Assembly: GCA_030429545.1 (NCBI GenBank)
Contig: JAUIFF010000001.1
Location: forward strand, 339,599 to 403,598
From: Polyangia bacterium
GTDB taxonomy: Bacteria > Myxococcota_A > Polyangia > Nannocystales > Nannocystaceae
Direction: 5' to 3'
DNA length: 64,000 bases
The notes below the pieces were generated by a model. It was not told the DNA's origin and ran no database searches. It saw only the letters and a program-made list of their open reading frames with translations. This document shows, in pieces, positions 9,712 through 44,077 of the stretch (positions within the stretch are counted from its first letter, which is position 1; the number at the start of each line of letters is the position of its first letter). Both the position numbers and the translations under genes were made by a program.

Positions 9712-11982
9712 TTGCAAGCTTTGGGGCTCAGGTGCATATCTGCCTCGTCCCCGCCTACGTCCCCGACTCCGGGATTCAACGCGGTTTTGCCCGGCAGACT
9801 TTCGATGTCCACAGCGAACTCCAAAAACGGTGAGCAACACCCACGCTTGAGCTGGCGCGAGGGACTGTTTTTGGTCGGCCCCGACCCGCTGACCTCGCCG
9901 TACTACGCCTCGGGATTTTTGCTGCTGGCGGGGGTTGGCTACGCAACACCGATTTTTCAAATCGGCCTGTACCTGCTGCTGTTTTTGTTGGCACCGCTGT
10001 ACATCGAGGCTGTGCTGCTCACGCTGTCCAACGGCGGCACCTATGTGATGACACGCTACGCCCTGAGTCACCTCGGCAAGCTGGCGATTGGTGCAGCAGC
10101 ATTGGTCGGGGTGATCATTTCGTTTTCGTATGTAGCGACCGCGATCGTCAGCTTGTTGTCGTACAGCGATTACGTCATGGCCCTGGTGCCCAACCTCGAA
10201 GGCGGGACCAAAACCACGGCCGCGATCGGGCTCTCGGCGATTCCCTCGGCGATCTTTGGTGTATGGGTGATGCCTAGGCAGGCCAGGCGGATCATCGTCT
10301 CGGTGGCGTTCACTAGCCTCGCGGCCCTCGGGCTGTCCTCGATCATGTCGCCCGGGGCCGTGGTGATGTTCGCCCCGCTCATCATGTTGTTTATCCTCAA
10401 CAACCAAGGGCTCAAGGAGAGCGTCAAGGTCAGCAAAACGATCTTCTTGATCAACCTCGCGGTGATGGGCGTCACCATCATTTGTGGCCTGGGTTACTTG
10501 CTGATGCACGGAGGTAACTTCGACGCCCTGATCAACGGCAGTGAGCTGGCCGCGGGAACCCACTTTCCGGGGGGGCACGGCGAAGGCGATGGCCACGGTA
10601 GCGCCACGGCAGATGTCGGGTTTTTGCCGGGCCTTGCCATGCTCGGTGCCCCGTTACTGCTCGCCGGGGTCGGCAACTCGATCCTCGGGGCTTCCGGGGT
10701 GGAGTCGGTGATGAACATCCCCGAGGAACTCGACAACGCCCGCCGCGACGTCCCCAAAATCTACTTCTGGATGTTGTCGATTTTGCTATGTGTCGGCGGT
10801 TCGGTGGCGCTGCTACTGTTTTTGGTGCTACCGCCCGAGGTCTTGGTCGAGCATGCCGGTGAGTTGTTGGCCTACCTGGGGCTGCACGTGGTCACGGGCG
10901 TCACCGGCTCGCAGACACTGGGCGAAGTCTGGAAAGTTGTCATCATCGCCAACGCGGCGCTCATGCTGATCGGTGCCACCAACACCGGGTTTGCCGGGGC
11001 CCGCGGCCTGTGGATGACCATGGCCCGCGACAACCTGATGCCACGGGCCATCCTTACCCCCAACAGCCGCGGCGCGTTTGAGCGGATCCACTGGCTGATG
11101 TTACTGGCCGTGGGATTGTTGGCCATACAAGGAGATTGGAGCCTGCCCAAACTAGAGCGTTGGTACGGGGCGACCTTTGCCCTGGTGATGTTCTCCGGTA
11201 TGGTGGCGTTTATCCTGTTGCGGCGGTTTAAAGGGACGGATCGTCGGGTCTACACCGCCCCGTGGAATATTCCGGCGTTCGGTACAAAAGTACCGATTGG
11301 CGCGTTGATTGGGGTAGGGGTACTTGCCTATGCACTTTTGAGCATGTACTCGGCCAACCGCATCCACATTGGCGAGTTGCAATCGCTGGTGACGATCTGC
11401 GTGGTCCTCGTCGGCCTTGTGCTGCTGAGCTACAACCACCGCCCGCTGATGCGGGCCGGCTATCGCTATTTTCGCCAGGTTGTCGAGACCGTCGAGCCCA
11501 CCGCGATTGAGACACGGGACCGCACCATTGTTGTCGCCGTGGGTGGGGTGCGAATTGGCCGGTTGATCAAGCGGGCGATCGAGCTCGCGCGGCGCCAAAG
11601 CAAGGCCTCGGGGATTCCGTATCGCCAGGTGGTCGTCTTTCATATGTCGCGCCACGTCAACAGTGAGCGGATTTACCGGGTCTCCCGCGACTCGGTGCGG
11701 CCCGACGGCATCGAAGGCAATACCGTTCGAATCTACACCGAGCTCACCGAGGTCGCGCCGGATGACATGACGGTCTACCTGGCACTGGTGCCCAACCCCA
11801 CGCCCGAACGCCCGACCTTGGAGGCGGCGATGGACGCCCTTGTCGACTTCCACAGGTCCCACGAGTTCAAGGGCCACATGGTGATGATCGGCACCTATGG
11901 CGTGCGTCAGGCTGACATCGAAGCGCTCGATGCCCGGCTCGAAGGCTCGACGTTGGTGCCGGTGCCCTTGTTTGAGGACTAA
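9712..11982 (+). CDS. APC-superfamily transporter-like polytopic membrane protein with a C-terminal cytoplasmic domain
   Basis: About 12 predicted hydrophobic helices across the first roughly 500 aa, with amino-acid-permease-like spacing. A soluble roughly 230-aa C-terminal domain follows. The true start may be the internal MSTANSK at 9805. Antisense ORFs 9628..10596 and 11152..12639 were rejected. Confidence 0.5.
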   Translation: MQALGLRCISASSPPTSPTPGFNAVLPGRLSMSTANSKNGEQHPRLSWREGLFLVGPDPLTSPYYASGFLLLAGVGYATPIFQIGLYLLLFLLAPLYIEAVLLTLSNGGTYVMTRYALSHLGKLAIGAAALVGVIISFSYVATAIVSLLSYSDYVMALVPNLEGGTKTTAAIGLSAIPSAIFGVWVMPRQARRIIVSVAFTSLAALGLSSIMSPGAVVMFAPLIMLFILNNQGLKESVKVSKTIFLINLAVMGVTIICGLGYLLMHGGNFDALINGSELAAGTHFPGGHGEGDGHGSATADVGFLPGLAMLGAPLLLAGVGNSILGASGVESVMNIPEELDNARRDVPKIYFWMLSILLCVGGSVALLLFLVLPPEVLVEHAGELLAYLGLHVVTGVTGSQTLGEVWKVVIIANAALMLIGATNTGFAGARGLWMTMARDNLMPRAILTPNSRGAFERIHWLMLLAVGLLAIQGDWSLPKLERWYGATFALVMFSGMVAFILLRRFKGTDRRVYTAPWNIPAFGTKVPIGALIGVGVLAYALLSMYSANRIHIGELQSLVTICVVLVGLVLLSYNHRPLMRAGYRYFRQVVETVEPTAIETRDRTIVVAVGGVRIGRLIKRAIELARRQSKASGIPYRQVVVFHMSRHVNSERIYRVSRDSVRPDGIEGNTVRIYTELTEVAPDDMTVYLALVPNPTPERPTLEAAMDALVDFHRSHEFKGHMVMIGTYGVRQADIEALDARLEGSTLVPVPLFED

Positions 11983-12082
11983 CGTGCAAGGGCGTTTTAG
12001 CTCGCCGCGAGGCCCGGGAAAAACTTGTTGGTACAACGAGATCAGGACCCTGGGGCAAGCCCGGGTACCGCGAAAGCGCAGC

Positions 12083-13798
12083 ATGCATGCTAGGCTTGGG
12101 CTGATGCGGCGAAGTCTCTTAGCTGTGTGGGTCATGTTCGCCGGCCTTGGTTGTGGTCCACCCGATCCGGTCGACGAGTATGAGCCGGTTGTGTGCGAGG
12201 GCGTGCTCGACATCCCCGATGCCAACCTGCGGGCGTTGTTGCTCGAAAAAGTGGGAACGCCGGTCGAGACCGAAGGTGAGACCGGGGACACCGGGGGCGA
12301 AACCGAGGGCGAGCCTGAGCTCGAACTACGGGCCGAGGCGTTGGCCGAACTTATTGGCCTGCGTGCGAGTTCAGCTGAGATAAGCGACCTGCGCGGGCTC
12401 GAGTGTGCGACCGGATTGCAGAGTTTGGGACTCGCCGACAACCAAATTACAAGCTTGGTCCCGCTCGCGTTTTTGACACAGTTGCGCGAGCTCGAAGTCT
12501 CCAACAATTCGCTCGACTCGCTCCAGCCACTCGAACGTTTAGGGGGCCTCGAAGTCCTCACCGTAGCCGAAACCGGGCTGACACAAATCGGTGCTGTCGC
12601 TGGGATGCCGGCGCTTCGCCACCTTGACATCGCAAACAATGCAATTACATCGATATCGCCAGTCGAAAGTTTGACAGGTCTCGAGTCGCTCTATGCCCCG
12701 GGCAACCAGATTTCCGACCTTTCACCCCTGAATGACCTTACAGAGCTGTTTTCGCTTGCGCTCAATAGTAACGAGGTAAGTGATATCCGTCCGCTCGCCG
12801 GGCTGGTCAACCTCGAGTTTGTCGATTTACGTGATAATACAATCACTGACCTGTCACCGCTTGAGGCCCTGACCAAGCTGCGCGACCTCGATTTGAGTGA
12901 CAACGCGATCGCCAGCATGCAAGGGTTGGGCAGCAAGCCCGACCTCGTTGAACTCGGGCTCGATGGCAACGCGATCACCCGTATTGAGGTCGACCATATG
13001 CCTTTGCTTGTCACCCTCGACCTCGATGACAACGCCGTGAGCGACCTCGGGGAGGTTGGGATGTTGCCCAAACTGCGCACCCTCGAGCTCGATGATTGTA
13101 ACGTCAAGGATCTCGGGCCACTGGCCGGGATGGTCACCCTGCGTCGACTCGACCTCCTCAACAACCCGGCGGTGTCGGATGTCGGGCCGCTGGCCCAGGT
13201 CCCGTCACTCGACTATGTGCGTATTGGCGGTGGGCAGGTGAACGACCTGCAGCCGTTGTCTGGGCTTGCCTTCCTGCGCCATATCGAGTTTATCGACGTC
13301 GGGCTCGGCGACCTCACGCCGTTGGTCTCGTTGGCTTCACTCCGGGTGTTGAGCCTTCGCGGGAGCACAACGGTCGGCAACGCGGAACTTGCGGTGATCG
13401 ACGAAATCAGCGAACTCACGAGCCTTGACCTCAGCGACACCGCGGTGAGCGACCTCGAGCCGCTGGCCTCTATGCTTGAGCTTCAGGCATTTGCAGCTGC
13501 AAATACACAGGTCAATACCCTCGAAAATATGACGCAATGGACCAAGCTGGAAACCCTCAACCTTTCGGGGACGCCACTGGCGTCGCTCACGGGTTATGAG
13601 GAACTCAATCGCGTAGCCAGTTTCGACCTCGACAATACCAACGTCGCCGACATCACCGCGATCGTCGACTACGCCGGGTTTCGCAACGGGGATGTCCTCA
13701 AAGTTCGGGGGACGCCACTCGATACCGGTGACTGTACAAATATCCTGGCACTACGAGAGCGTGGAGCTGTGGTCGAGACCGATGTGGTGTGCGAGTAA
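12083..13798 (+). CDS. leucine-rich-repeat (LRR) lipoprotein
   Basis: ATG at 12083 (MHARLGLMRRSLLAVWVMFAGLGCG, lipobox LGC). Acidic GETGDTGGETEGEPE linker. Then about 20 tandem 22-residue LRR units (LxxLxLxxNxIxDLxPLxxL...). Confidence 0.7.
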   Translation: MHARLGLMRRSLLAVWVMFAGLGCGPPDPVDEYEPVVCEGVLDIPDANLRALLLEKVGTPVETEGETGDTGGETEGEPELELRAEALAELIGLRASSAEISDLRGLECATGLQSLGLADNQITSLVPLAFLTQLRELEVSNNSLDSLQPLERLGGLEVLTVAETGLTQIGAVAGMPALRHLDIANNAITSISPVESLTGLESLYAPGNQISDLSPLNDLTELFSLALNSNEVSDIRPLAGLVNLEFVDLRDNTITDLSPLEALTKLRDLDLSDNAIASMQGLGSKPDLVELGLDGNAITRIEVDHMPLLVTLDLDDNAVSDLGEVGMLPKLRTLELDDCNVKDLGPLAGMVTLRRLDLLNNPAVSDVGPLAQVPSLDYVRIGGGQVNDLQPLSGLAFLRHIEFIDVGLGDLTPLVSLASLRVLSLRGSTTVGNAELAVIDEISELTSLDLSDTAVSDLEPLASMLELQAFAAANTQVNTLENMTQWTKLETLNLSGTPLASLTGYEELNRVASFDLDNTNVADITAIVDYAGFRNGDVLKVRGTPLDTGDCTNILALRERGAVVETDVVCE

Positions 13799-13813: not shown

Positions 13814-14518
13814 CTAGGACCTACGCAGTCGCGACCAGGCAAGCGCCGCGGCCCCGACAACCCCAGCGCGCGCAGCCCAGCGAATGCCCTTGAGAACGCG
13901 GATCCGGGTGCGCATCTGTTGGCGATCGTTGAGGTGGGGGAACGGCTCAGCCGGGGTGTCGACACCCAAAAACTCACACAGTGGCTCCCAACCCTGCTTG
14001 ACTGAGTAGACCAACAGGCGCTCGGGCGGGACATCGCGTTTGACCTGTTCGATGTGGTCGTTGAAGATTTTGATTGCATAATCACGGTTTAAAAACCGGC
14101 CGTGAAAGGTGCCGTCCCAGGCAGTCGCGGACCCAACCCGAGCCACCGCTTTGAGGCCGCGGGCAGGCAGCCACCGAGGTGTGTTGAGCGTCAGCGGATA
14201 AATTGTTTGGGCGACGCTCTCGTACCAGCGCTCGGGGTCGCGGACCGTCAGCAACACCTTGGCGTCGGGGTAGAGCTGCATGAGCTCGCGGTAGAAGATG
14301 CAACTGGGCCAGTCGAGACTGGACTGGTAACCAGCAAACAGTGAGTCCCAATCGACAGCCTCACCTCGGGCCGCCGCCAACCAGTGTGGGGCTTGCTGCG
14401 GGTGCTTGAGTACTTCGACCATGTGGTGGCACGTGCCAAAGCCGAGGCGTTCGAGAGCGGCCTTGAGCGAGGTCGTGCCGGTGCGGCCAAATCCGGCCCC
14501 AATGATTTTGAGTCCCAT
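13814..14518 (-). CDS. sulfotransferase-family protein (P-loop-like GxGRTGTT PAPS-binding motif)
   Basis: N-terminus MGLKIIGAGFGRTGTTSLKAAL plus downstream ...LLTVRDPERWYES... are characteristic of small bacterial sulfotransferases. Confidence 0.7.
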   Translation of the reverse strand: MGLKIIGAGFGRTGTTSLKAALERLGFGTCHHMVEVLKHPQQAPHWLAAARGEAVDWDSLFAGYQSSLDWPSCIFYRELMQLYPDAKVLLTVRDPERWYESVAQTIYPLTLNTPRWLPARGLKAVARVGSATAWDGTFHGRFLNRDYAIKIFNDHIEQVKRDVPPERLLVYSVKQGWEPLCEFLGVDTPAEPFPHLNDRQQMRTRIRVLKGIRWAARAGVVGAAALAWSRLRRS

Positions 14519-14599
14519 CGGCGGGAGTCTATCGCGGAGTCAGATGTGGCTTGCGTGGACAATTTCAGAAGATGCAGGGCTCGGGGTACACCGAGTGCG

Positions 14600-15568
14600 A
14601 TGGGGAGCAGTCTCGAAGCCGCGGCGGGTCAATTTCTCGAGTACCTCCGCAGTGAGGTGCGTGCCTCCGTACATACGATTCGTGCCTACGAGCGCGACAT
14701 TCGGGGGTTTGCCGAGGGCGTTCAGGCTCGGCGTGAGCGTGCGCCACGGGTGCAAGACCTCAACCTCCGGAGCGTGCGGGCCCACCTCGCGGACCTGTTT
14801 GGCAAAGTTGCTCCGAGCACGGTCGCGCGCAAGCTGTCATCGTTGCGCAGTTTTGCCGAGTTTTGCCGCAGCCGTGGGATGTTGCCCGAAAACGAAGTCG
14901 CCCTGATCCGCCGCCCCAAACTCGGGCGCAAACTGCCGGTGGCCCTACCGGTCGAGGACATCACCGAGATAATCGACGGCAAGGGGCACGCCAGCGGGGC
15001 GAGGGGGCTGCGAGATCGGGCGATCCTCGAGGTGCTCTATGGTGCAGGTTTACGCGTCAGCGAAGTTGCCAAACTCGACCTCGAGCACGTGCGCCATGAG
15101 GGAGCGGACGTCACCCTACGGATCGTCGCCGGCAAGGGCAATAAGGACAGGCTCGTGCCGCTCGGGCGGGTCGGAAGTGAGGCCCTCGCGGCCTACGTGG
15201 CGGTCCGAGACACGCTTGTCAAACCTCGCTCCAAGGGGACTGGCGCACTGTTCTTGAGCAATCGCGGGCAACGGCTCGGAGTCCGGACAATTCGCAACCT
15301 CGTGTATCGCAGGTGCGAACAAACCGGGGCACGGGCCCGCATTGGCCCCCACGGGATGCGCCACAGCTTTGCCACCCACCTGCTCCAAAGTGGGGCCGAC
15401 CTGCGCAGCATTCAGGAGATGCTTGGTCATGCAAGTTTATCGACGACCGAGCGTTACACCCATCTCGACCTCGGCCGCGTGACCGAGGTCTACGAGCGCA
15501 GTCACCCGCGGGCGGGGGCAAGCCGCGAAGCCTCGCGCTACAAGCTGCCGAAGTCTGGTGACAACTGA
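14600..15568 (+). CDS. tyrosine site-specific recombinase, XerC/XerD family
   Basis: ATG at 14600 verified. N-terminal core-binding domain (...FLEYLRSEVRASVHTIRAYERDIRGF...). Catalytic signature ...GLRVSE..., HGMRHSFATHLL, and LGHASLSTTERYTHL (the R-H-R-Y residues). XerC versus XerD cannot be told apart by eye. Confidence 0.8.
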   Translation: MGSSLEAAAGQFLEYLRSEVRASVHTIRAYERDIRGFAEGVQARRERAPRVQDLNLRSVRAHLADLFGKVAPSTVARKLSSLRSFAEFCRSRGMLPENEVALIRRPKLGRKLPVALPVEDITEIIDGKGHASGARGLRDRAILEVLYGAGLRVSEVAKLDLEHVRHEGADVTLRIVAGKGNKDRLVPLGRVGSEALAAYVAVRDTLVKPRSKGTGALFLSNRGQRLGVRTIRNLVYRRCEQTGARARIGPHGMRHSFATHLLQSGADLRSIQEMLGHASLSTTERYTHLDLGRVTEVYERSHPRAGASREASRYKLPKSGDN

Positions 15569-15604: not shown

Positions 15605-16135
15605 TTGTCACCTCATCGGGCGGCGGTGAGCGTTCTTGCTCCACCGAAACGCCGCCACGGCTTTGTGATCGGCTGGATGTTCGCTATCGTTGGCCCGATG
15701 CTGACGCGGACCCTGGTCGTAACCTTTGTTGTCGCCACGCTCGGCGGTATTGCCTGTGGGCCGGGCGGAGGAGGCGAGTTTGCTAGTTCGCCCTGCGAAG
15801 GTCCGGCCGACTGCTATCCCGATGTCGACCACGCACAGCTACGGGGGGATGTTGTTTGTATCGACAAGGTCGAGTACGGTTATTGTACACACAACTGTCA
15901 AACCGATGCAGATTGCTGTGCGGTTCCCGGAGAGTGTCGAACCAACATCCAACAGGTGTGCTCTCCGTTCGAGAATATGTCGCAAAAGCGGTGCTTCTTG
16001 TCGTGCGAGGCCGCCGACCTCCCCGGCGATTACAAGGGTGAAGCTGATCGGTTTTGCAGCGACTACATGTTTGCCGGTTGGACCTGTGCCTCGAGCGGAG
16101 GTGGGTCGGAGAACCGAAAAATTTGTAAGCCGTAG
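15605..16135 (+). CDS. small secreted cysteine-rich protein (about 12 Cys)
   Basis: Hydrophobic N-terminus (MFAIVGPMLTRTLVVTFVVATLGGIACG). Mature part rich in paired Cys (CEGPADCYPD..., CTHNCQTDADCC...). No family recognised. Confidence 0.45.
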   Translation: MSPHRAAVSVLAPPKRRHGFVIGWMFAIVGPMLTRTLVVTFVVATLGGIACGPGGGGEFASSPCEGPADCYPDVDHAQLRGDVVCIDKVEYGYCTHNCQTDADCCAVPGECRTNIQQVCSPFENMSQKRCFLSCEAADLPGDYKGEADRFCSDYMFAGWTCASSGGGSENRKICKP

Positions 16136-16160
16136 AACTCGGCTTACGGGTAAGTTTTCG
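16125..16160. terminator. bidirectional hairpin terminator between convergent genes
   Basis: gtaagccg (16125-16132), loop tagaact, cggcttac (16140-16147), followed by gggtaagttttcg. The stop codon of the upstream CDS lies in the loop. Sits between the + gene ending 16135 and the - gene ending 16173. Confidence 0.5.
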
Positions 16161-16172
16161 ACCTCGTGCAGT

Positions 16173-17102
16173 TTACGGACGCCACACGAAGGTTCGCCGT
16201 CCGCTGCGGCTGCTGGCGTTCCCCAAACGGGCAACAACTTCACCACGGATCTTGTCTTCGGGCACCCAGCCGACGGCCCGCGAGTCACAGCAGGCGCCTT
16301 CGTCACGGTTGTCGGCGATCACCAAAAAGCCTTCGGCCTCCATCTCAACCGGAGTGTTGTCCTCCGGGAGCCCCATCACGGGCCACCTCGGCTGTTCGAG
16401 ATCGGGGTGGAGCAGCACTTGATAGTCACGCTCCTCGATCTGTTCGTGGGCCGAGGGTCGCAAACCATTGCTGTGTTCGGTTTTTAGGGGCAACGAGGCG
16501 CCGGGCTTTTGCACGAGCGGTTTGCCGTTGATGGCCAGCCCCATGGCGGCACCCGGGACGTGGAAGGTCACGGTGTCCCCCGGTCGTGCGAGAATTCGGC
16601 CCACACGCAACTTACCGGCATTCTCCAAGCTGTCGGAAGGGTCATCTACCTGCGAGCGTTCCTGGACACTGTCCCAATGTTCATCGCTCAGGCCAAGGTC
16701 GTCGGGATCGATAACGGCGGTGTTGCGCAGTTGACCGCGGGGATTTTGGGTGGCATCGGCGTGTTGGCGGGGCGCGGGGTCCCCACGCCCCGGGCGTTCG
16801 ATCGGGACCACGACTTGCTGGGCAACCAGTTGCTGCTTGACCGGCTCGTAGACCACCAAATCGCCGCGTTCGAGCCCCCAGGCGCCGCGGATCATCATGA
16901 CGTATTCGCTGTCGAGGATGGTCGGAGCCATGCCGTCGCCATGGATCTTTACGACCGTAGCCGTGCTCACCCGTACCAAAACGAGCAGGCAACCACACAC
17001 CAAAACGCCCCACGCGAGGCGGGTGGAGAGGCTGCGAGAGCCAAGTTTTCGCCTTCGGCGGCGTTCGTCTTCGTAGTCGTCTCTGCGAAACCAGCGCAAC
17101 AA
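16173..17102 (-). CDS. type I signal peptidase (S26) homolog, apparently lacking the Ser/Lys catalytic dyad
   Basis: N-terminal TM anchor. Box B-like VKIHGDGMAPTI, box C GDLVVY, box D-like LRVGRILARPGDTV, box E GFLVIADNRDEGACCDSRAVG. At the expected catalytic positions, box B reads G-D-G-M where G-D-S-M is expected, and box D reads G-R where K-R is expected. By eye both residues are Gly. Confidence 0.75.
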   Translation of the reverse strand: MLRWFRRDDYEDERRRRRKLGSRSLSTRLAWGVLVCGCLLVLVRVSTATVVKIHGDGMAPTILDSEYVMMIRGAWGLERGDLVVYEPVKQQLVAQQVVVPIERPGRGDPAPRQHADATQNPRGQLRNTAVIDPDDLGLSDEHWDSVQERSQVDDPSDSLENAGKLRVGRILARPGDTVTFHVPGAAMGLAINGKPLVQKPGASLPLKTEHSNGLRPSAHEQIEERDYQVLLHPDLEQPRWPVMGLPEDNTPVEMEAEGFLVIADNRDEGACCDSRAVGWVPEDKIRGEVVARLGNASSRSGRRTFVWRP

Positions 17103-17479: not shown

Positions 17480-19087
17480 ATGGGCAATGGAAAACGGGAA
17501 AGTAAGTACGACTCTGGTAACGTTTGGACTACATGGCCGCGGCTGCTCGCGGTTGGGGTTGCAGCCTTGCTCCTGTCGCCCGTAGCAGCCTGCAGCAGTG
17601 GTGGAGATACAACCAGCGAAACACTTGGGACCGAGGGTCCGACAACCACGACGACGACCACAACCGCCGGGCCGGGAACAACCGACACCGACACCGACAC
17701 CGGGGCCGACACGGCTGCGACGGCGAGCGGGGGTGATTGCGGGAATGGCGAAGTCGACGAAGGCGAGGCCTGCGACGACGGTAACGATGACAACACCGAT
17801 TCGTGTCTCAACACCTGTGAGGAGGCAAGCTGCGGTGATGCGTTCGTGCAGGTCGGTGTCGAAGAGTGCGACGACGGCAACGACGACGACAGCGACTCCT
17901 GCACCAGCAACTGCCAGCTGCCAGTTTGCGGGGATATGATCGTCCAAGAGGGCGAGGAGTGCGACGACGGTAACGACGATGACACGGATGCTTGTACGAG
18001 CACGTGTGTGGCAGCAGCCTGCGGCGATGGTGTGGCCCAAGAGGGCGAAGAGTGTGACGACGGCAACACTGAAGACACCGACGAGTGCACCAACGCCTGC
18101 ACACTGCCAGTGTGCGGTGACGGTGTGGTGTCGAACGGTGAAGAGTGCGACGACGGCAATGCCGAAGATACCGACGCCTGCACCATGGAGTGCGTCGCCG
18201 CAGTCTGTGGCGACGGGATCGTGTGGGAAGGAACCGAGGCCTGCGACGACGGCAACGATGTCGATGACGATGAGTGTTCCAATATGTGCGCCCTCGCCAG
18301 CTGTGGTGACGGCATCGTCCAGATGGGCGAGGAGTGTGACGACGGCAACGATGTCGACTCCGATGAGTGTCCGACCAACTGCCTCAACGCCGTCTGCGGC
18401 GATACTTTTGTCCAAGAAGGGGTCGAGGATTGCGATGATGGCATGGAGTCGGAGATGTGCGACGGCGACTGCACGGCTGTGGAGTGTGGTGATGGCCTAG
18501 CCAACACGCTCGCGGGCGAGGAGTGCGACGACGGAAACGACGACGATACCGATGAGTGCGTTTCCGGTTGTGTCGCCGCGACCTGCGGTGACGGGTTCGT
18601 GCAGGACGGAGTCGAAGAGTGCGACGATGGCAACGAAAACAACGACGACGCGTGCACCAATGATTGTATGCTCAATCAAATCAACATCACCATGAGCTGC
18701 AACCAGGGGCAGGATTGCCAGCAAGAGTGCAACCCGTGGAACTCGTTCCGCTCCAGCCTCACAGGCGGTACCTACTCGGCAGTCACCCTCCGGGGCAGCT
18801 CGGACATGGTCGGTCAAACCTGCTCCAATCCAGCCCTTGCCAACCAGATTTGCAACAACCTCGCCACCGGCACGGCAACCAACGTCCAGTGCGACGGTCG
18901 AACCTGGCGAATCGGTAACTGCGGAGCAGGCGTGGAGATCAACGCCAACGGCAACATGTGTAGCTGCGCAGCCGGATGGGTGGTGCGCCCCTGCATCAAC
19001 CAAGGCAATCCCAACTGGGGCGGCATGAACACGGCGACCTGTAATAGTCCAACACAGACGCTCGAAGTCATCTGTTTTGGCGGCTAG
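17480..19087 (+). CDS. lipoprotein made of tandem Myxococcus-type cysteine-rich repeats ([27 protein letters not shown])
   Basis: Signal with lipobox-like VAACSS. Thr-rich spacer. About 11 consecutive roughly 40-aa repeats carrying ECDDGN(D/T)xDTD(A/E)C...C(V/L)xAxCGDG. Cys-rich non-repeat C-terminal domain. Antisense ORFs 17420..18415 and 17443..18675 are mirror artefacts. Confidence 0.7.
17750..18660 (+). repeat. coding tandem repeat array (about 120-nt period) encoding the cysteine-rich repeats
   Basis: Recurrent gagtgcgacgacggcaacga... / tgcggcgatgg... units are visible at nucleotide level. Confidence 0.6.
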
Positions 19088-19103
19088 CGAGTGTTATTTG
19101 CGC

Positions 19104-19136
19104 AGGCGGGGCCCATAGCGGGTCCCGTTTTTTATC
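19104..19136 (+). terminator. putative rho-independent terminator
   Basis: GC-rich imperfect hairpin gcggggccc-atagc-gggtcccg followed by ttttttatcg, 17 bp after the stop at 19087. Confidence 0.4.
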
Positions 19137-19168
19137 GATTACGGGCAAATGCTGGCCGACTCAAGGAC

Positions 19169-19876
19169 TCAAAACCCACCTCCGAAGAAAAGACCAAAGT
19201 AATTTGCATCGACTAAAATCGGGGAGGCACGGATTTTTTCTAGGTAGTTTCGAGAAAATTGAAAACCGGCTCGTACGAAATTTGTTTGCATCGAGAGTTC
19301 GCTACAAATACCGAGGGCCGCCTGCTTCTCGCGCCCTAGATACGCTAGTACTTCAGAGCGGACATACTGGAAGTGTGCGTAAAAATTGAAGCGGTTGAAC
19401 TTGAGTTTTTCTTCCCACTCTCGAAACACGCCTACTCGTACGGACGCATAGTTTAGGCGGGGCCTGTTCAGAGCTACACTTTCGCGCGCCGCAATCTCGA
19501 GGACGGTATCGTTAAACGCTTCACGAAAGGCCGCTGGCCGCCAGTAGACTTCTGCGTTCTGGCTGTGTAAATCAAGTGAAGCTGACCAGTGGTATCCGGA
19601 TGCTATGTCCACGGGGGTCTCTTCAGCGTCTTGAACCTTGATTTCTCGGATCGACTGAATAAAGCCTCGCAAGGCGGCCAGTGCATTGAGTGGACGTCCA
19701 TCGGCTAGTGACTGGAGCAACGAGCCGTATGTGTTTATAATAGGTGATTCGATAGTGTAGACTGGTCCCTTGTCATGTTTACTGGCAGTTGAGAACTTTT
19801 CGGTGAAAATTGCATAGCCCACTTTTGCCCGAATATAGTTCCTGTATCCTAGGTGGCCTCCGGCGACAAAAAGCAT
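19169..19876 (-). CDS. outer-membrane beta-barrel-like protein (C-terminal portion); lower-GC gene
   Basis: Alternating hydrophobic pattern. C-terminus ...VDANYFGLFFGGGF ends in Phe, the classic OMP signature. Local GC is about 50% against a background of about 68%. Confidence 0.4.
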   Translation of the reverse strand: MLFVAGGHLGYRNYIRAKVGYAIFTEKFSTASKHDKGPVYTIESPIINTYGSLLQSLADGRPLNALAALRGFIQSIREIKVQDAEETPVDIASGYHWSASLDLHSQNAEVYWRPAAFREAFNDTVLEIAARESVALNRPRLNYASVRVGVFREWEEKLKFNRFNFYAHFQYVRSEVLAYLGREKQAALGICSELSMQTNFVRAGFQFSRNYLEKIRASPILVDANYFGLFFGGGF

Positions 19877-20307
19877 ACGCGTAACCTCCTCCGGCCTTCG
19901 ATCGGGTTCAGGTGGCGACTTCGGTGGCGTATAGTCATCGGACTCGTAACTACCAATTCTGGCAAATGATAGAGTATAGAATGTGCCAACCTCAAACTCG
20001 GGGTGTTGTCCTCACGTTTTGTGATTGCCATCAAGTAGCGTTGGGAGATTACGTTGTTCGTAATCGTTTCATCGAAGTGTTGAAATGCCTGATCTGCTCG
20101 GGAGTTCTTGAGGACATCTGCTGGTGTGTCACCTAGGGGAGATTGAAGTGTAAGAAGTTGAAGCGGTACCAGTGCAAGCGTCCTCTTCGTGGTCCAGCGG
20201 CTCCGACTCATGGACATTTGCCGGATGTCCTCAGTCTGGGAGATACGGACGGGGTGAGAAGAGCACTCGGTACAGCAGCATAGTTTGGTATGGAACTTTG
20301 CGAGCAT
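19169..20307 (-). pseudogene. possible frameshifted OMP gene (ORFs 19849..20307 and 19169..19876 overlap 28 nt in different frames)
   Basis: The upstream ORF has a signal-like stretch (TKRTLALVPLQLLTLQSPLG) but no barrel. The downstream ORF has the barrel but no signal peptide. Both lie in the same low-GC islet, consistent with one gene split by a frameshift or a sequencing error. Confidence 0.3.
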
Positions 20308-20382: not shown

Positions 20383-21483
20383 CTATAAATCGAGAAGTAT
20401 CTCGGGACCACGGGCGAGCGGGCGCTTGGGAAACGGCCGCACCCCACGGACCCGTTGGCCGCGGACGGGCATATACCGATCGTGCCAGCGGCCATCGATG
20501 TAGACCTCGACAAACGGAGCCGGCAGTGAGTAGCCCGAGGCTTCCATTTCGCGGGTCGAGACATGGAAGTGGATGTGTGGGCCCGAGCTGCTGCCGCTGT
20601 TGCCGGCCTTCCCGAGGTATTGGCCGACTTCCACGCGGTCGCCTTTTTTGACCGTGAGCGTGCCGGGAATGAAGTGCCAAAGCGACGAGGTCTCGCCGAA
20701 GCCGTGGTCGAGCACGAGGCCGTTGCCTCCCTTTTTCCCGCGCTTGCCAGGCACGTTTTCGCGGACGCCGTCGACCGCGTGGATCACCGTGCCCGAAGCC
20801 GGTGCATATACAGGTTGCCCGTAGCAAAAGTACTGGCTGTTGCGCTTGCCGTTGCCGACCCGTTGGCGCCCGTTTTTGCGGACCACCAGGTCGTAGGCAA
20901 ACCGCTGCTTGCGGCTACCATGGTGGTAGTTGGTCGCTTTACGTCGCCCGCCGTGGGCAACCGTCCACTCGCCCACGCTGGGAAAGTGAAACCGGGTGAC
21001 GGGCAGGTAGTGCTCCGCCGGGGGCTCGAGCTCGGCCAGCGAAAGATGCTCACGGACGAGCAGACGTTCGAGGGTGCGGTCGGGGTTGATCGCAAATTGG
21101 TAGAGCATCAGCCGCTTGGGGCCGGTCGGCGAGGGGGGTTTTTGTGCATGTAAAACGACCCCCGAGTACCACAGCAGGTCATCCTCGCGATGCAGGCGCT
21201 CCTCGACGATCCCGACCACGTCGCCGTAGCTCGATGCAATCCGTTGACTAGCCTGCGACAGCATCTCGCCCGAAACCTGCGTGCGCAGGGTGGGGCTCAT
21301 CCAGGCCACGATCGCCGGAATTTTTTTGTGGGTCACGGCATCGATCAGGCGATCGGCCTCGGGCAGTAGCGCACTTTTGGGAGCGACGGTGGTCGGTGGG
21401 CGTTTGAGGGTTTGCGGACGGCAAGCAAACGCTGAGGTGGCGAGCCACAAACCCAAAACTGCGATCGGTCGGTACCTTCGCAT
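20383..21483 (-). CDS. M23 (LytM/lysostaphin-type) peptidase-family protein
   Basis: ATG at 21483 (MRRYRPIAVLGLWLATSAFAC, signal/lipobox). C-terminal domain has GNSGSSSGPHIHFHV (the HxH motif) and ...LVLDHGFGETSSLWHF.... The first HxxxD zinc motif is not obvious by eye, so it may be degenerate. Confidence 0.7.
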   Translation of the reverse strand: MRRYRPIAVLGLWLATSAFACRPQTLKRPPTTVAPKSALLPEADRLIDAVTHKKIPAIVAWMSPTLRTQVSGEMLSQASQRIASSYGDVVGIVEERLHREDDLLWYSGVVLHAQKPPSPTGPKRLMLYQFAINPDRTLERLLVREHLSLAELEPPAEHYLPVTRFHFPSVGEWTVAHGGRRKATNYHHGSRKQRFAYDLVVRKNGRQRVGNGKRNSQYFCYGQPVYAPASGTVIHAVDGVRENVPGKRGKKGGNGLVLDHGFGETSSLWHFIPGTLTVKKGDRVEVGQYLGKAGNSGSSSGPHIHFHVSTREMEASGYSLPAPFVEVYIDGRWHDRYMPVRGQRVRGVRPFPKRPLARGPEILLDL

Positions 21484-21641
21484 GCGCCGCTGGAGTGTAT
21501 CAGAAGCTTCCGGCCCGTGACGCGGGGTTTTCGCCCGGTGACCCGGTGCTGTTGTGGGCAGTCCCGGGCGGGGGGAGCCGCCACCGCGCACCGATTTGTA
21601 TGAGCAAGTAATTTAGAGCAACAGGCCGGATTTTAATTTGA

Positions 21642-41733: not shown

Positions 41734-42074
41734 ATCGGGAAAAATCGAACGATGTACGGCGGGCCCGGGTTGCTGCCCTATCTCCTACAAATTTGCGATG
41801 CGTAGGGTTTTTGGATGGTTTTGGCTTGGTAACTCACAGTGGCTGGTAGTCGCGAGTTGCAGAAAGCTTCCGAAGTGGTCACTCACGTGACCCCGTCAGT
41901 GCTCGGTACGGCTCTTGACTCGCAACGCCGGTGGAAGCCAAGCCGGTGCTAGTGGGGCTCGGACAGACTTGCCGTCGCGCGCACACCTGTACATCGGTCG
42001 GGAGCAGGTCACGAGCGCCGGCGGAGGTCGAATCGGTGTACTTGCATGTGTTATCGCTAGTACGGGCGAAATCT

Positions 42075-42938
42075 ATGACCGACTTCTTTGCCTTCCATCA
42101 GGTCCTACTCCAATTAGCCAGCCTTGTAGCATCTTTCCTGCTCAGGGATGATATTTGCTATCCTTGGGGAGTGAAGATACGACCAGAGCTTCTCCTTGTG
42201 TGCTGTCTGGGAGGTTGTCCGTCCAAGGGCTCGGTCACGACGTCGTTGACAATCTCAGACACAGGCAGTTCTTCGACGAGCTCTTCGACAAGCACCAGCT
42301 CGTCTGGGGGGAGCGACACTGCTTCGGAACCGTCGTTGACAATGGGGAGTGGCACCGCCTCGACCTCCACCACACTCGGTGAGACCACGGCGGGAGACGG
42401 TGTATGTCCAGAGTGTTCTGATTGCTCGGATCAAGAGACCTGCGTAGCTCGATGCAAAACGGGTCAAAACCCGGCAGACCGTGAGTGCTATGTTGAGTGT
42501 ATTGAGAAAGTCCCATTTTCGAGTAAACTTGAAGCTTGTGAGTACGAAGATTCCTTATGTGGCCCAGACATGACAATAAATGGGTTTGGTGAAGATTACT
42601 TTGCATGCGGGGATGTTTTATGTAGCGATGCATGCGACATCTGCTCGGTTTGTGACTGGTATGAGTGTGAGCTTACGAACCCTTGCAAAGAGGGCTACAA
42701 CTGTAGTCCAATCCGTGTATTTAGCGAGCACGCTTATGACTGGCTGGCTTGTTTACCAAGTGGCGATCTACCGGTGGACTCGCCATGTGTGGAACATAGC
42801 GACTTTGACGAGTGTGAGTACGGTGCAGCTTGTGTTGTCGGTGTCTGCCGTTTCTTCTGTGACGAAGATGATTCATGCCCTCAAGGCTATCATTGTGAAA
42901 CTTTACAAAACTGGGTTAACTTTTGTGTTCTCGACTAG
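42075..42938 (+). CDS. cysteine-rich secreted lipoprotein, paralog A (lower-GC islet)
   Basis: ATG at 42075. An in-frame GTG at 42171 gives a better lipoprotein signal (V)KIRPELLLVCCLGGC. Ser/Thr-rich linker, then a roughly 190-aa domain with about 28 Cys. This domain is collinear with the gene at 43119..43883 (for example ...LEACEYEDSLCGPDMTINGF...CGDVLCSDACDICSVCDWYEC...CPQGYHCETLQNWVNFC). Local GC is about 50%. Confidence 0.55.
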   Translation: MTDFFAFHQVLLQLASLVASFLLRDDICYPWGVKIRPELLLVCCLGGCPSKGSVTTSLTISDTGSSSTSSSTSTSSSGGSDTASEPSLTMGSGTASTSTTLGETTAGDGVCPECSDCSDQETCVARCKTGQNPADRECYVECIEKVPFSSKLEACEYEDSLCGPDMTINGFGEDYFACGDVLCSDACDICSVCDWYECELTNPCKEGYNCSPIRVFSEHAYDWLACLPSGDLPVDSPCVEHSDFDECEYGAACVVGVCRFFCDEDDSCPQGYHCETLQNWVNFCVLD

Positions 42939-42959
42939 AATGCGCCTGGCTTTTGTGGC

Positions 42960-43045
42960 ACCTCGGCGACGACCCATCAGTTGAGGAGCGCAGCTGTCTG
43001 CTCACCGTGACTCCGGAGGTACATTGCGAGTCCCGCGGAGCATCG
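42960..43045. repeat. dispersed repeat copy R1 (core tcaccgtgaNtNcgNagNtNcattgcgaNt)
   Basis: ...acccatcagttgaggagc...gtctgctcaccgtgactccggaggtacattgcgagtcccgcgga..., with two related copies 1.1 kb away (R2, R3). Confidence 0.45.
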
Positions 43046-43118
43046 AGTGGAGCTGCCATAAATCTCTCGCGGTCGGTACAACTTCGACGAAGCAGGTGGT
43101 GTTGATAGCCTTTGCATG

Positions 43119-43883
43119 TTAGCTCGGATAGCAGTACCCAACCCAATTCTGTATGTACATACAGTGAAATCCCTGAGGGCACGAGTCTTGCTTACCACAC
43201 GGAGTGCGGCAAGTTTCAAACACGCAAGCAGCTCCATATACACACTCATCATAGTCGTTGTGATGAGTGCAGGGCGAGCCTACGGGGGAGTCGCCGCTTG
43301 GAAGACAAACCCGCCAGTCATAAAAGATGTCATTACCAAAAACAAGAATTGGGCTACAATTGTAGCCCAGTTCGCATGGAGAATTGACGGAGCACTCATG
43401 CCAGTCGCAGGATGAGCATATATCACACGATTTGCTACATAACACATCGCCACAAGCACGACTAGTGCTATCCTTCCGGAATCCCACTATCCCCATGTCG
43501 GGGCCACAAAGGTATTCATCAAAGTTGCAAGCCTCAAGCTCCGTCGAAAATGGAGCATCTCCCTTAGGGAGACAAACGGTGCCGCACACACCTTCATAGA
43601 TGTTGATTGTACACCTTGCAATACATATTTCGTCATCAGAGCAAGTAGAACACTGTGGGCAATCGAGGTCCCCACCCGTAGCTGTCTCAGTGTCAATGTC
43701 TGTCGTCGATTCTGACTCTGAGCTATTCCCTAGCGAGGTTTCATCCGTTGTCGATGAACCAGTAGTTGTCGAAACTGATGTTGTCCCGCCATCTGTATTG
43801 GAACTTGAGTTTTCGACCGAGCTGCAACCGACCAAGTAGAAGATCGCAATAAATAGTGCGGGAGATACCTTCACATTGCTCAT
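43119..43883 (-). CDS. cysteine-rich secreted lipoprotein, paralog B (convergent with paralog A)
   Basis: ATG at 43883 verified (MSNVKVSPALFIAIFYLVGCSS, lipobox LVGC). Ser/Thr/Glu linker. Cys-rich domain collinear with paralog A (...LEACNFDEYLCGPDMGIVGF...CGDVLCSKSCDICSSCDWHEC...CPQGFHCMYIQNWVGYC). Confidence 0.6.
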   Translation of the reverse strand: MSNVKVSPALFIAIFYLVGCSSVENSSSNTDGGTTSVSTTTGSSTTDETSLGNSSESESTTDIDTETATGGDLDCPQCSTCSDDEICIARCTINIYEGVCGTVCLPKGDAPFSTELEACNFDEYLCGPDMGIVGFRKDSTSRACGDVLCSKSCDICSSCDWHECSVNSPCELGYNCSPILVFGNDIFYDWRVCLPSGDSPVGSPCTHHNDYDECVYGAACVFETCRTPCGKQDSCPQGFHCMYIQNWVGYCYPS

Positions 43884-44077
43884 GATAGCATCATTCAGGG
43901 GGGCTTCACTCGCGAGCAATTTCGACTGTTTTGTGAGCAAGCTTGAAGCACACGAGCCCGTGTTCGTTTGTAGCCACCGCGCAATACCATCGCCACGGTG
44001 TATGCTGAGTCTATGAACTGCACGGCCGCTGACCCTAGCCAGCGGCCGGCTTGCTCACCGCGACACATCAGCCGACA

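Follow-up and report, generated by a model that had tools for sequence, protein, structure and literature searches.

The gene at positions 16173..17102 (minus strand) of a 64,000-nucleotide stretch of genomic DNA from a Polyangia bacterium, hereafter called the window, encodes a protein of the signal peptidase family S26 in which the alignments place glycine at both positions of the Ser/Lys dyad that serves catalysis. The explanation towards which we cautiously lean is that this S26-like protein would be a functional, non-catalytic paralog of the type I signal peptidases (SPase I), a 'pseudo-SPase' that is anchored in the membrane, faces the periplasm and binds peptides through a retained groove, as suggested by sequence comparison, structure modelling and analogy with described proteins. 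The family to which it belongs is an undescribed, independently evolved and order-wide pseudo-peptidase variant in diderm bacteria, within a functional class that is already known. Pseudo-proteases are gaining recognition as modules of binding or regulation, and only two described bacterial examples of dead S26 proteins were found, SipA and SpsA, both from Gram-positive species. The present case is one of diderm bacteria in which the S26 catalytic centre was lost entirely and independently, the resulting family being maintained by strong selection throughout an order, and it combines invariant residues that are new where the active site used to be with an unexpected link to a thiamin-biosynthesis operon. 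The family offers a clean system for asking what use is made of a signal-peptide-binding groove once cutting has been lost.

The catalytic centre and the apparently retained groove

The coding sequence, taken from a program-made list of open reading frames (ORFs), starts from TTG at 17102, encodes 309 amino acids (aa) and is intact throughout 16173..17102(-); a database protein of 100% identity (P0001) starts one codon later, at 17099, and has 308 aa. The homology of the product to S26 peptidases is far above chance. It matches PF10502 (Peptidase_S26) at E=6.1e-13, with 49.5 bits against a cutoff of 22.9, and TIGR02227 ('signal peptidase I') with 56.8 bits against a cutoff of 47, and a hidden Markov model (HMM) built from 52 canonical Ser/Lys S26 proteins recovers it at E=5e-26. 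The AlphaFold2 (AF2) model, for which 49 orthologs were the input, has a mean predicted local distance difference test (pLDDT) value of 71 and a predicted template-modelling score (pTM) of 0.62. Foldseek ranks three structures of Escherichia coli SPase I highest, namely 9nlo, 3s04 and 1b12 (E~4e-7, probability 1.00; template-modelling score for the target 0.5-0.6), followed by Streptococcus pyogenes SipA (4n31) and Staphylococcus aureus SpsB. Other S26 subfamilies were considered and rejected. In NCBIfam, TIGR02754 (nickel superoxide dismutase maturation protease) scored 21.2 bits against a cutoff of 63.25 and no TraF hit was obtained, scores that rule against membership in the SodX or TraF subfamilies. 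The endoplasmic reticulum/archaeal type (SipW/Sec11), which uses a Ser/His pair, was set aside because the general-base column holds Gly168 and not His; the invariant His54 of the protein falls in box B, three residues ahead of the nucleophile column.

The catalytic columns were mapped with a profile of the 49 orthologs against PDB sequences, and E. coli LepB was aligned separately with the family HMM. In the profile, 'iHGdGmAPtl' pairs with 'IKGESMDPTL' of SpsB, which places Gly57 at the nucleophile Ser36, and 'vgRvlAvPGd' pairs with 'VKRVIGVPGD', which places Gly168 at the general base Lys77. The alignment to E. coli LepB (QIPSGSMMPTLL and 'IKRAVGLPGD') gives the same mapping, and the claim of a first-pass annotation, made from the sequence of the window, that this S26 homolog carries Gly for both dyad residues is thereby confirmed. 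In the 324-aa numbering of LepB, with classical numbers in brackets, Gly55 stands at Ser89 (Ser88) of the oxyanion hole, Gly57 at the nucleophile Ser91 (Ser90), Gly168 at the general base Lys146 (Lys145), Ala263 at Gly273 (Gly272), adjacent to the Lys, and Gly269 at Ser279 (Ser278), which stabilises the Lys; His54 stands at Pro88 (Pro87), a variable position. The roles of Gly272 and Ser278 are taken from the literature, in which Ser278 contacts the catalytic Lys (PMC4049620). As judged from these alignments, the entire five-residue catalytic centre is replaced and not just the dyad, a change that would rule out S26-type cleavage.

Box B (aa 51-62, VKIHGDGMAPTI; 16917..16952, minus strand) was delimited by alignments to SpsB, to the signal peptidase I chain of 4nv4 and to E. 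coli LepB, and box D (aa 165-176, LRVGRILARPGD; 16575..16610, minus) by alignments to SpsB, E. coli LepB and the corresponding segment of SipA, LKVGRIAAQAGD. The two substituted dyad positions are both encoded by GGC, at 16934..16932 for Gly57 and at 16601..16599 for Gly168, and the codon of His54 lies at 16943..16941. Conservation was assessed in 121 sequences, namely the best 120 database homologs (43-84% identity) and the window protein. Gly57 is invariant (121/121), as are His54, Gly55 and Met58 in box B and Arg166 and Arg169 in box D, while position 168 is Gly in 113 sequences and Ala in 8. The Gly/Gly variant is thus conserved in orthologs, a check that the first-pass annotation had proposed, and the canonical dyad, whose presence in orthologs would have been a sign of sequencing error, was not seen in any of them.

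Box E (aa 260-278, LVIADNRDEGACCDSRAVG; 16269..16325, minus), located by HMM alignment to E. coli LepB and SpsB, and box C (aa 80-85, GDLVVY; 16848..16865, minus), which aligns to 'GNVVVF' of SpsB and in which Gly80 and Asp81 are invariant, had both been described as intact. For box E this is correct as regards the DNR...DSR core; the remainder is altered by Ala263 and Gly269 and by a vicinal pair, Cys271-Cys272 (16292..16287), which forms a two-residue insertion after Gly269, just ahead of the DSR. Gly269, Cys271, Cys272, Asp273, Ser274 and Arg275 are all invariant in the 121 sequences. The residues that line the substrate cleft appear to have been spared. LepB Phe84, Ile86, Met91, Leu95, Ile101, Val132 and Ile144, which we take from the E. 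coli structures to form the S1/S3 pocket, pair with Val51, Ile53, Met58, Leu or Ile62, Val68, Val84 and Val167 of the family, positions that are conservatively hydrophobic among orthologs, with low AF2 confidence at the site. The earlier suggestion of a preserved binding cleft is consistent with this pattern.

The family also has additions of its own: an insertion of ~75 aa, the invariant His54, the invariant Arg166 (two residues before Gly168) and the vicinal Cys-Cys. The insertion, recognised in the conservation profile, separates boxes C and D (aa 88-163; 16614..16841, minus) and carries the conserved motif LRNTAV(I/V)D-DDL...W..VQ.RS, where E. coli LepB has ~9 residues; AF2 pLDDT in it is mostly below 50-60. 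It is followed by a beta-rich segment resembling LepB domain II (aa ~190-255; 16338..16535, minus), which includes Glu220 and an 'RRYxVL' motif. The family HMM aligns 'etlGdrryqvL' to 'ETLGDVTHRIL' of E. coli LepB in this segment, the AF2 model has strands at aa 197-255, and the best Foldseek matches, all E. coli SPase I, possess domain II. The retention of a domain II segment of the E. coli type argues that the family descends from the Gram-negative LepB and not from the Gram-positive SipA lineage.

At the N-terminus, an Arg-rich cytoplasmic tail (aa 1-28; 17019..17102, minus), with the consensus FRRxDxED...R..DRSxSTR in the conservation profile, precedes a single transmembrane anchor, box A (aa ~29-50; 16953..17018, minus), which is the sole hydrophobic segment: Kyte-Doolittle means above 1.6 are confined to 19-residue windows starting at aa 24-35, and the AF2 model has a helix at aa 25-45. 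Lys plus Arg around the anchor amount to 3.3 on the N-flank vs 0.12 on the C-flank, and of 119 orthologs 99% have the more positive charge on the N side. From this an N-in/C-out topology with an extracytoplasmic domain is predicted, as is usual for SPase I.

Selection, distribution and known counterparts

The S26-like gene is under strong purifying selection. In comparison with the 84%-identical ortholog of a metagenome-assembled genome (MAG; L004), the proportions of nonsynonymous (pN) and synonymous (pS) differences are 0.10 and 0.69, and the ratio of the corresponding substitution rates (dN/dS) is 0.058, an approximate value since dS is near saturation. An exhaustive profile search of 1.84 billion representative proteins returned 31 family representatives at E<=1e-30, below which the scores fall sharply to ~65-75 bits for generic S26 proteins, a gap that marks the family as a discrete clade. 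When the family motifs were scanned for in GTDB, with each species represented by one genome, 62 loci were found, each from a different genome, with two loci in none. The hosts are Nannocystis, Enhygromyxa, Plesiocystis, Paraliomyxa and MAGs labelled Nannocystaceae, Nannocystales, Polyangia or Myxococcales; the family is confined to Nannocystaceae/Nannocystales and is spread across that order. Distant members differ in the additions, in that P0134 and P0145 have the Cys-Cys without the His, and P0142 and P0150 have neither.

Loss of the dyad is seen well beyond this clade. Among the next 112 representative matches outside the family, only 59 have Ser/Lys at both dyad positions, and about 40 of these 112 nearest non-family S26 representatives (P0155-P0266, metagenomic) lack Ser and/or Lys there. 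The recurring dyad-less types include Glu/Arg with Asp/Arg (about 205-235 aa), Ala/Met, Ala/Gln, Ala/Gly and Gly/Gly; among the dyad variants, an 'IPSGAM' group keeps the Lys. All eight dyad-less or distant variants that were tested match TIGR02227, and seven of them score above its cutoff. Taken together, these counts mean that S26 proteins without the dyad are frequent in sequence space and as a matter of routine receive the label 'signal peptidase I', which is also the JGI label of members of the present family. With such groups above the cutoff of this equivalog model and labelled in this manner, the counts of LepB paralogs in genomes are inflated by dyad-less S26 proteins.

Catalytically dead S26 paralogs had been held by the first-pass annotation to be no described class in bacteria, a view that two published proteins contradict. 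SipA/LepA of S. pyogenes (PDB 4n31, 4k8w) has Asp48/Gly85 at the dyad and lacks peptidase activity, and pilus polymerisation cannot proceed without it; its equivalents of Gly272 and Ser278 are altered, and its peptide-binding cleft is conserved (PMC4049620). SpsA of S. aureus lacks both dyad residues and has no activity, and peptide binding is thought to be retained (PMC12414704).

The likeness to SipA extends from the S26 fold and the replaced dyad to details of box D. Gly85 of SipA aligns with Gly168, the same Lys-to-Gly change in a 'VGR' context; SipA LKVGRIAAQAGD is near-identical to LRVGRILARPGD of the S26-like protein, and a basic residue stands two positions upstream of the Gly in both (Lys83 in SipA, Arg166 here). 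Both proteins, moreover, have changed equivalents of Gly272 and Ser278, a hydrophobic cleft that is kept in SipA and appears to be kept in the S26-like protein, and a membrane-anchored, extracytoplasmic (here predicted) placement. The differences are as numerous. The nucleophile column holds Asp in SipA and Gly in the S26-like protein; SipA has ~170 aa and no domain II of the E. coli type, whereas the S26-like protein has 309 aa and a domain-II-like segment, together with the 75-aa insertion between boxes C and D and the Cys-Cys insertion; and SipA is a Gram-positive protein encoded in a sortase/pilin island beside its clients, whereas the neighbours of the S26-like gene are thiSGE or M23/xerC genes. 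Since the profile does not match SipA (E=7e-9) any better than the active SpsB (E=2e-9), the resemblance is most likely convergent, and these E-values, the domain II segment and the restriction to Nannocystales all speak against orthology with SipA. With SpsA, which is inactive, the family shares the condition of a conserved chromosomal SPase I paralog in which both catalytic residues are gone. SpsA, however, adjoins the active spsB, whereas no S26 gene lies near the S26-like gene, and it is of the short Gram-positive type without the Cys-Cys, His or insertion features. E. coli LepB and the LepBs of Polyangia (S26A) share with the family boxes A-E, the N-in/C-out anchor, the SPase I fold, the domain-II-like region, the S1/S3 pocket residues and the DNR...DSR core of box E; they differ from it in the five catalytic-centre residues (classical Ser88, Ser90, Lys145, Gly272 and Ser278) and in having none of its added Cys-Cys, 75-aa insertion, invariant His54 and Arg166. 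In the literature searches, neither the Nannocystales family nor any dead LepB paralog of myxobacteria was found described.

Genomic context and alternative explanations

At about 55 of the other loci the S26-like gene closes a thiamin-biosynthesis gene cluster, in the order alr<-crp<- thiS->thiG->thiE->S26-like (e.g. L006 8322-10933; L003 8361-10861). In 49 of the 57 measurable loci its start codon, mostly ATG, lies 14-53 nt ahead of the thiE stop, the commonest offsets from that stop being -20, -23, -26 and -29, and this overlap reads as a signature of co-transcription and translational coupling. No thiamin pyrophosphate (TPP) riboswitch was detected upstream of thiS, and the Rfam matches at the loci were to tRNAs only. 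A protease role in the processing of ThiS was rejected, given that in 53 of 54 loci the ThiS sequence, as encoded, terminates in Gly-Gly and that the S26-like protein is predicted to be periplasmic.

The arrangement in the window is a different one. There the S26-like gene is convergent with a Cys-rich ORF at 15605-16135 and a XerC-type recombinase gene at 14384-15568, and divergent from a DUF4215 Cys-repeat gene at 17480-19087 across a 377-bp intergenic region. An M23 peptidase-domain gene at 20383-21591 (minus), on the same strand as the S26-like gene, is the conserved upstream neighbour in the window lineage. The gene had been credited with its own terminator, and a terminator-like hairpin is indeed found by consensus scan and direct reading just past the stop (16147..16125, minus): an 8-bp stem with 5 GC pairs is followed by AAATTTTT, and the structure lies 26 nt past the stop codon, where it overlaps the 3' end of the convergent ORF. 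In the 84%-identical MAG (L004/L008), the DUF4215 gene, an orf at 19169-19876 and the Cys-rich ORF are all missing; in L004, the M23 peptidase gene ends 185 bp upstream of the S26-like gene, and the distance to xerC on the downstream side is 154 bp. Apart from these differences, the window runs collinear with the L004 contig. GC content at 18001-20000, in the DUF4215 segment, is 0.559, lower than in the surroundings, and segment 17103-20382 is probably a recent insertion. The three genes absent from the MAG are not conserved neighbours elsewhere either, apart from one weak DUF4215 match far downstream in L059. The window lineage has thus uncoupled the S26-like gene from the thi genes with no change to the conserved residues.

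Under the pseudo-SPase reading, one N-terminal helix would anchor the protein in the inner membrane, with the domain of SPase I fold turned toward the periplasm, where it would bind, and not cut, extended peptide segments of exported or membrane proteins. The ligands could be signal-peptide-like or Ala-X-Ala-like stretches. SipA, and probably SpsA, provide the analogy of proteins that work by binding without cutting; the SipA precedent in particular, with a Lys-to-Gly change, no activity, a kept cleft and an essential function, supports a non-catalytic binding role. The lineage-specific additions, that is, the 75-aa insertion by the groove, His54, Arg166 and Cys271-Cys272 where the network of the catalytic Lys and Ser278 was, may fit the groove to a ligand or partner peculiar to the lineage. 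In most Nannocystales the gene stands fourth in an operon behind thiS, thiG and thiE, with apparent translational coupling; in the window lineage it has moved to the M23-peptidase/xerC neighbourhood, with a divergent gene beside it and its own terminator-like hairpin behind. A part in signal-peptide binding or in the regulation of export, as a chaperone or regulator, may be supposed.

Several points weigh against this reading. The conserved neighbours encode cytoplasmic thiamin enzymes and not exported substrates as in the case of sipA; AF2 pLDDT is ~60 at box B and below 50 in the box E loop; and, with His54 and the Cys-Cys invariant, the site looks more like one with a new function than one simply lost. 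A further point concerns the word paralog. Ser/Lys SPase I is considered universal and essential in bacteria, and it is from this established universality that the paralog status is argued. No second S26 ORF occurs in the 64-kb window or in ~770 kb of Nannocystales loci. Homolog searches from a canonical LepB (P0261) and from a 20-sequence profile of Polyangia-type LepB returned thousands of canonical enzymes, and among those matches, the scope of which was not genome-wide, no canonical Ser/Lys lepB was demonstrably from a Nannocystales genome. The canonical LepBs of Polyangia, for their part, keep IPSGSM, KRV and GDNRDNSxDSR, which argues that the family is a diverged paralog type and not a lineage-wide drift of LepB motifs; such enzymes with intact motifs are abundant in MAGs of Polyangia/Myxococcales.

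The alternative that we take most seriously, though we think it unlikely, is a neofunctionalised fold, in which the emptied Ser/Lys cavity, His54, Met58 and Cys271-Cys272 would make up a novel site, either active or ligand-binding, suited perhaps to thiol/His chemistry or serving as a redox-active vicinal disulfide or a metal site. It draws on the invariance of His54, Cys271 and Cys272 in the 121 sequences and on the insertion of the Cys pair exactly at the position of LepB Ser278, the residue that contacts the Lys (PMC4049620). The translational coupling of the gene to thiE makes it possible that such a site functions in connection with the thiazole/thiamin pathway, and the thiS-thiG-thiE-S26-like order in about 55 of the 62 genomes, with the 14-53-nt overlap in 49 of 57, speaks for that link. 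The domain is, however, predicted to be periplasmic while ThiS, ThiG and ThiE are cytoplasmic; the unrelated alr and crp stand in the same block, so that ancestral synteny may explain the adjacency; the TPP riboswitch is missing upstream of thiS; and the window and its 84% relative have left the thi genes with all the conserved residues kept. The distant members P0134 and P0145, in which the Cys pair occurs without the His, and P0142 and P0150, in which both are absent, also count against a joint site, as does the variability of the His54 column in canonical SPases (Pro in LepB, Lys in SpsB). Quite unlikely, in our estimate, is the specific form in which the re-purposed fold would carry a new catalytic, redox or metal/ligand site acting with the thi operon, to which the gene is coupled through thiE in ~50 Nannocystales species; its extreme version would be a peptidase with a relocated Cys/His centre.

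The remaining alternatives fare worse. A gene that is order-wide, strongly conserved and never present at two loci in one genome, and that keeps its S1/S3 pocket residues, could be taken for the working signal peptidase of Nannocystales, acting by a mechanism other than Ser/Lys, for example through Cys271/272 and His54, in the place of an absent canonical LepB, none of which was found to be demonstrably from this order among the homolog-search matches. We know of no described bacterial SPase I without Ser/Lys, and we regard this proposal as very improbable: bacteria are generally taken to require the Ser/Lys enzyme without exception, MAGs of Polyangia/Myxococcales abound in canonical LepBs whose motifs are intact, the negative result for a Nannocystales lepB concerns the homolog-search matches listed and not whole genomes, and SipA, with the same Lys-to-Gly change, is inactive (PMC4049620). 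A dedicated partner, chaperone or regulator of the neighbouring DUF4215 lipoprotein, a link that was implied by the first-pass annotation, would suit the divergent placement of the two genes across 377 bp. It is contradicted by synteny, however, as GC is lower (0.559) in the segment that holds the DUF4215 gene and orf 19169-19876, and both are missing between the M23 and S26-like genes of the 84% relative, an absence which argues that the Cys-repeat lipoprotein is not a conserved partner; with one weak match in L059 as the nearest thing to a conserved neighbour at other loci, there is hardly any chance that this explanation is correct. The probability of a decaying pseudogene, or of sequencing or assembly errors in a normal lepB, is practically negligible. 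Beyond the missing dyad nothing speaks for it, the ORF is intact, the same substitutions recur in 120 independent orthologs and 62 genomes, and a change from Lys (AAR) to Gly (GGC) takes at least two nucleotide changes; ortholog conservation and the dN/dS of 0.058 refute it.

Other features of the window

The DUF4215 Cys-rich-repeat protein has a lipobox-like N-terminus (LLLSPVAAC). The ~3.3-kb segment 17103-20382 holds its gene and orf 19169-19876, which has no Pfam match. The Cys-rich ORF at 15605-16135 (plus strand), between xerC and the S26-like gene, encodes 176 aa, likewise with no Pfam match; it has a possible lipoprotein signal (LGGIACG) and is 90% identical in a near-identical Logan contig (L001).

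Further away, a leucine-rich-repeat protein gene (LRR_4/LRR_8, 633 aa) at 11897-13798 (plus) adjoins a Sulfotransfer_4 gene at 13814-14518 (minus), the latter missing among the Pfam-annotated genes of the L004 contig. Positions 42001-44000 of the window have a GC content of 0.511 vs ~0.60 elsewhere and are possibly foreign DNA; the ORFs at 41931-42938 (plus) and 43119-43940 (minus) in this stretch have no Pfam match. A tRNA gene with an identical score of 72.8 bits (L006 10987-11059; L037 7111-7183; L002 14049-14121) lies directly downstream of the S26-like gene in Enhygromyxa salina and Plesiocystis pacifica, and in Pseudenhygromyxa a few kb away from it.

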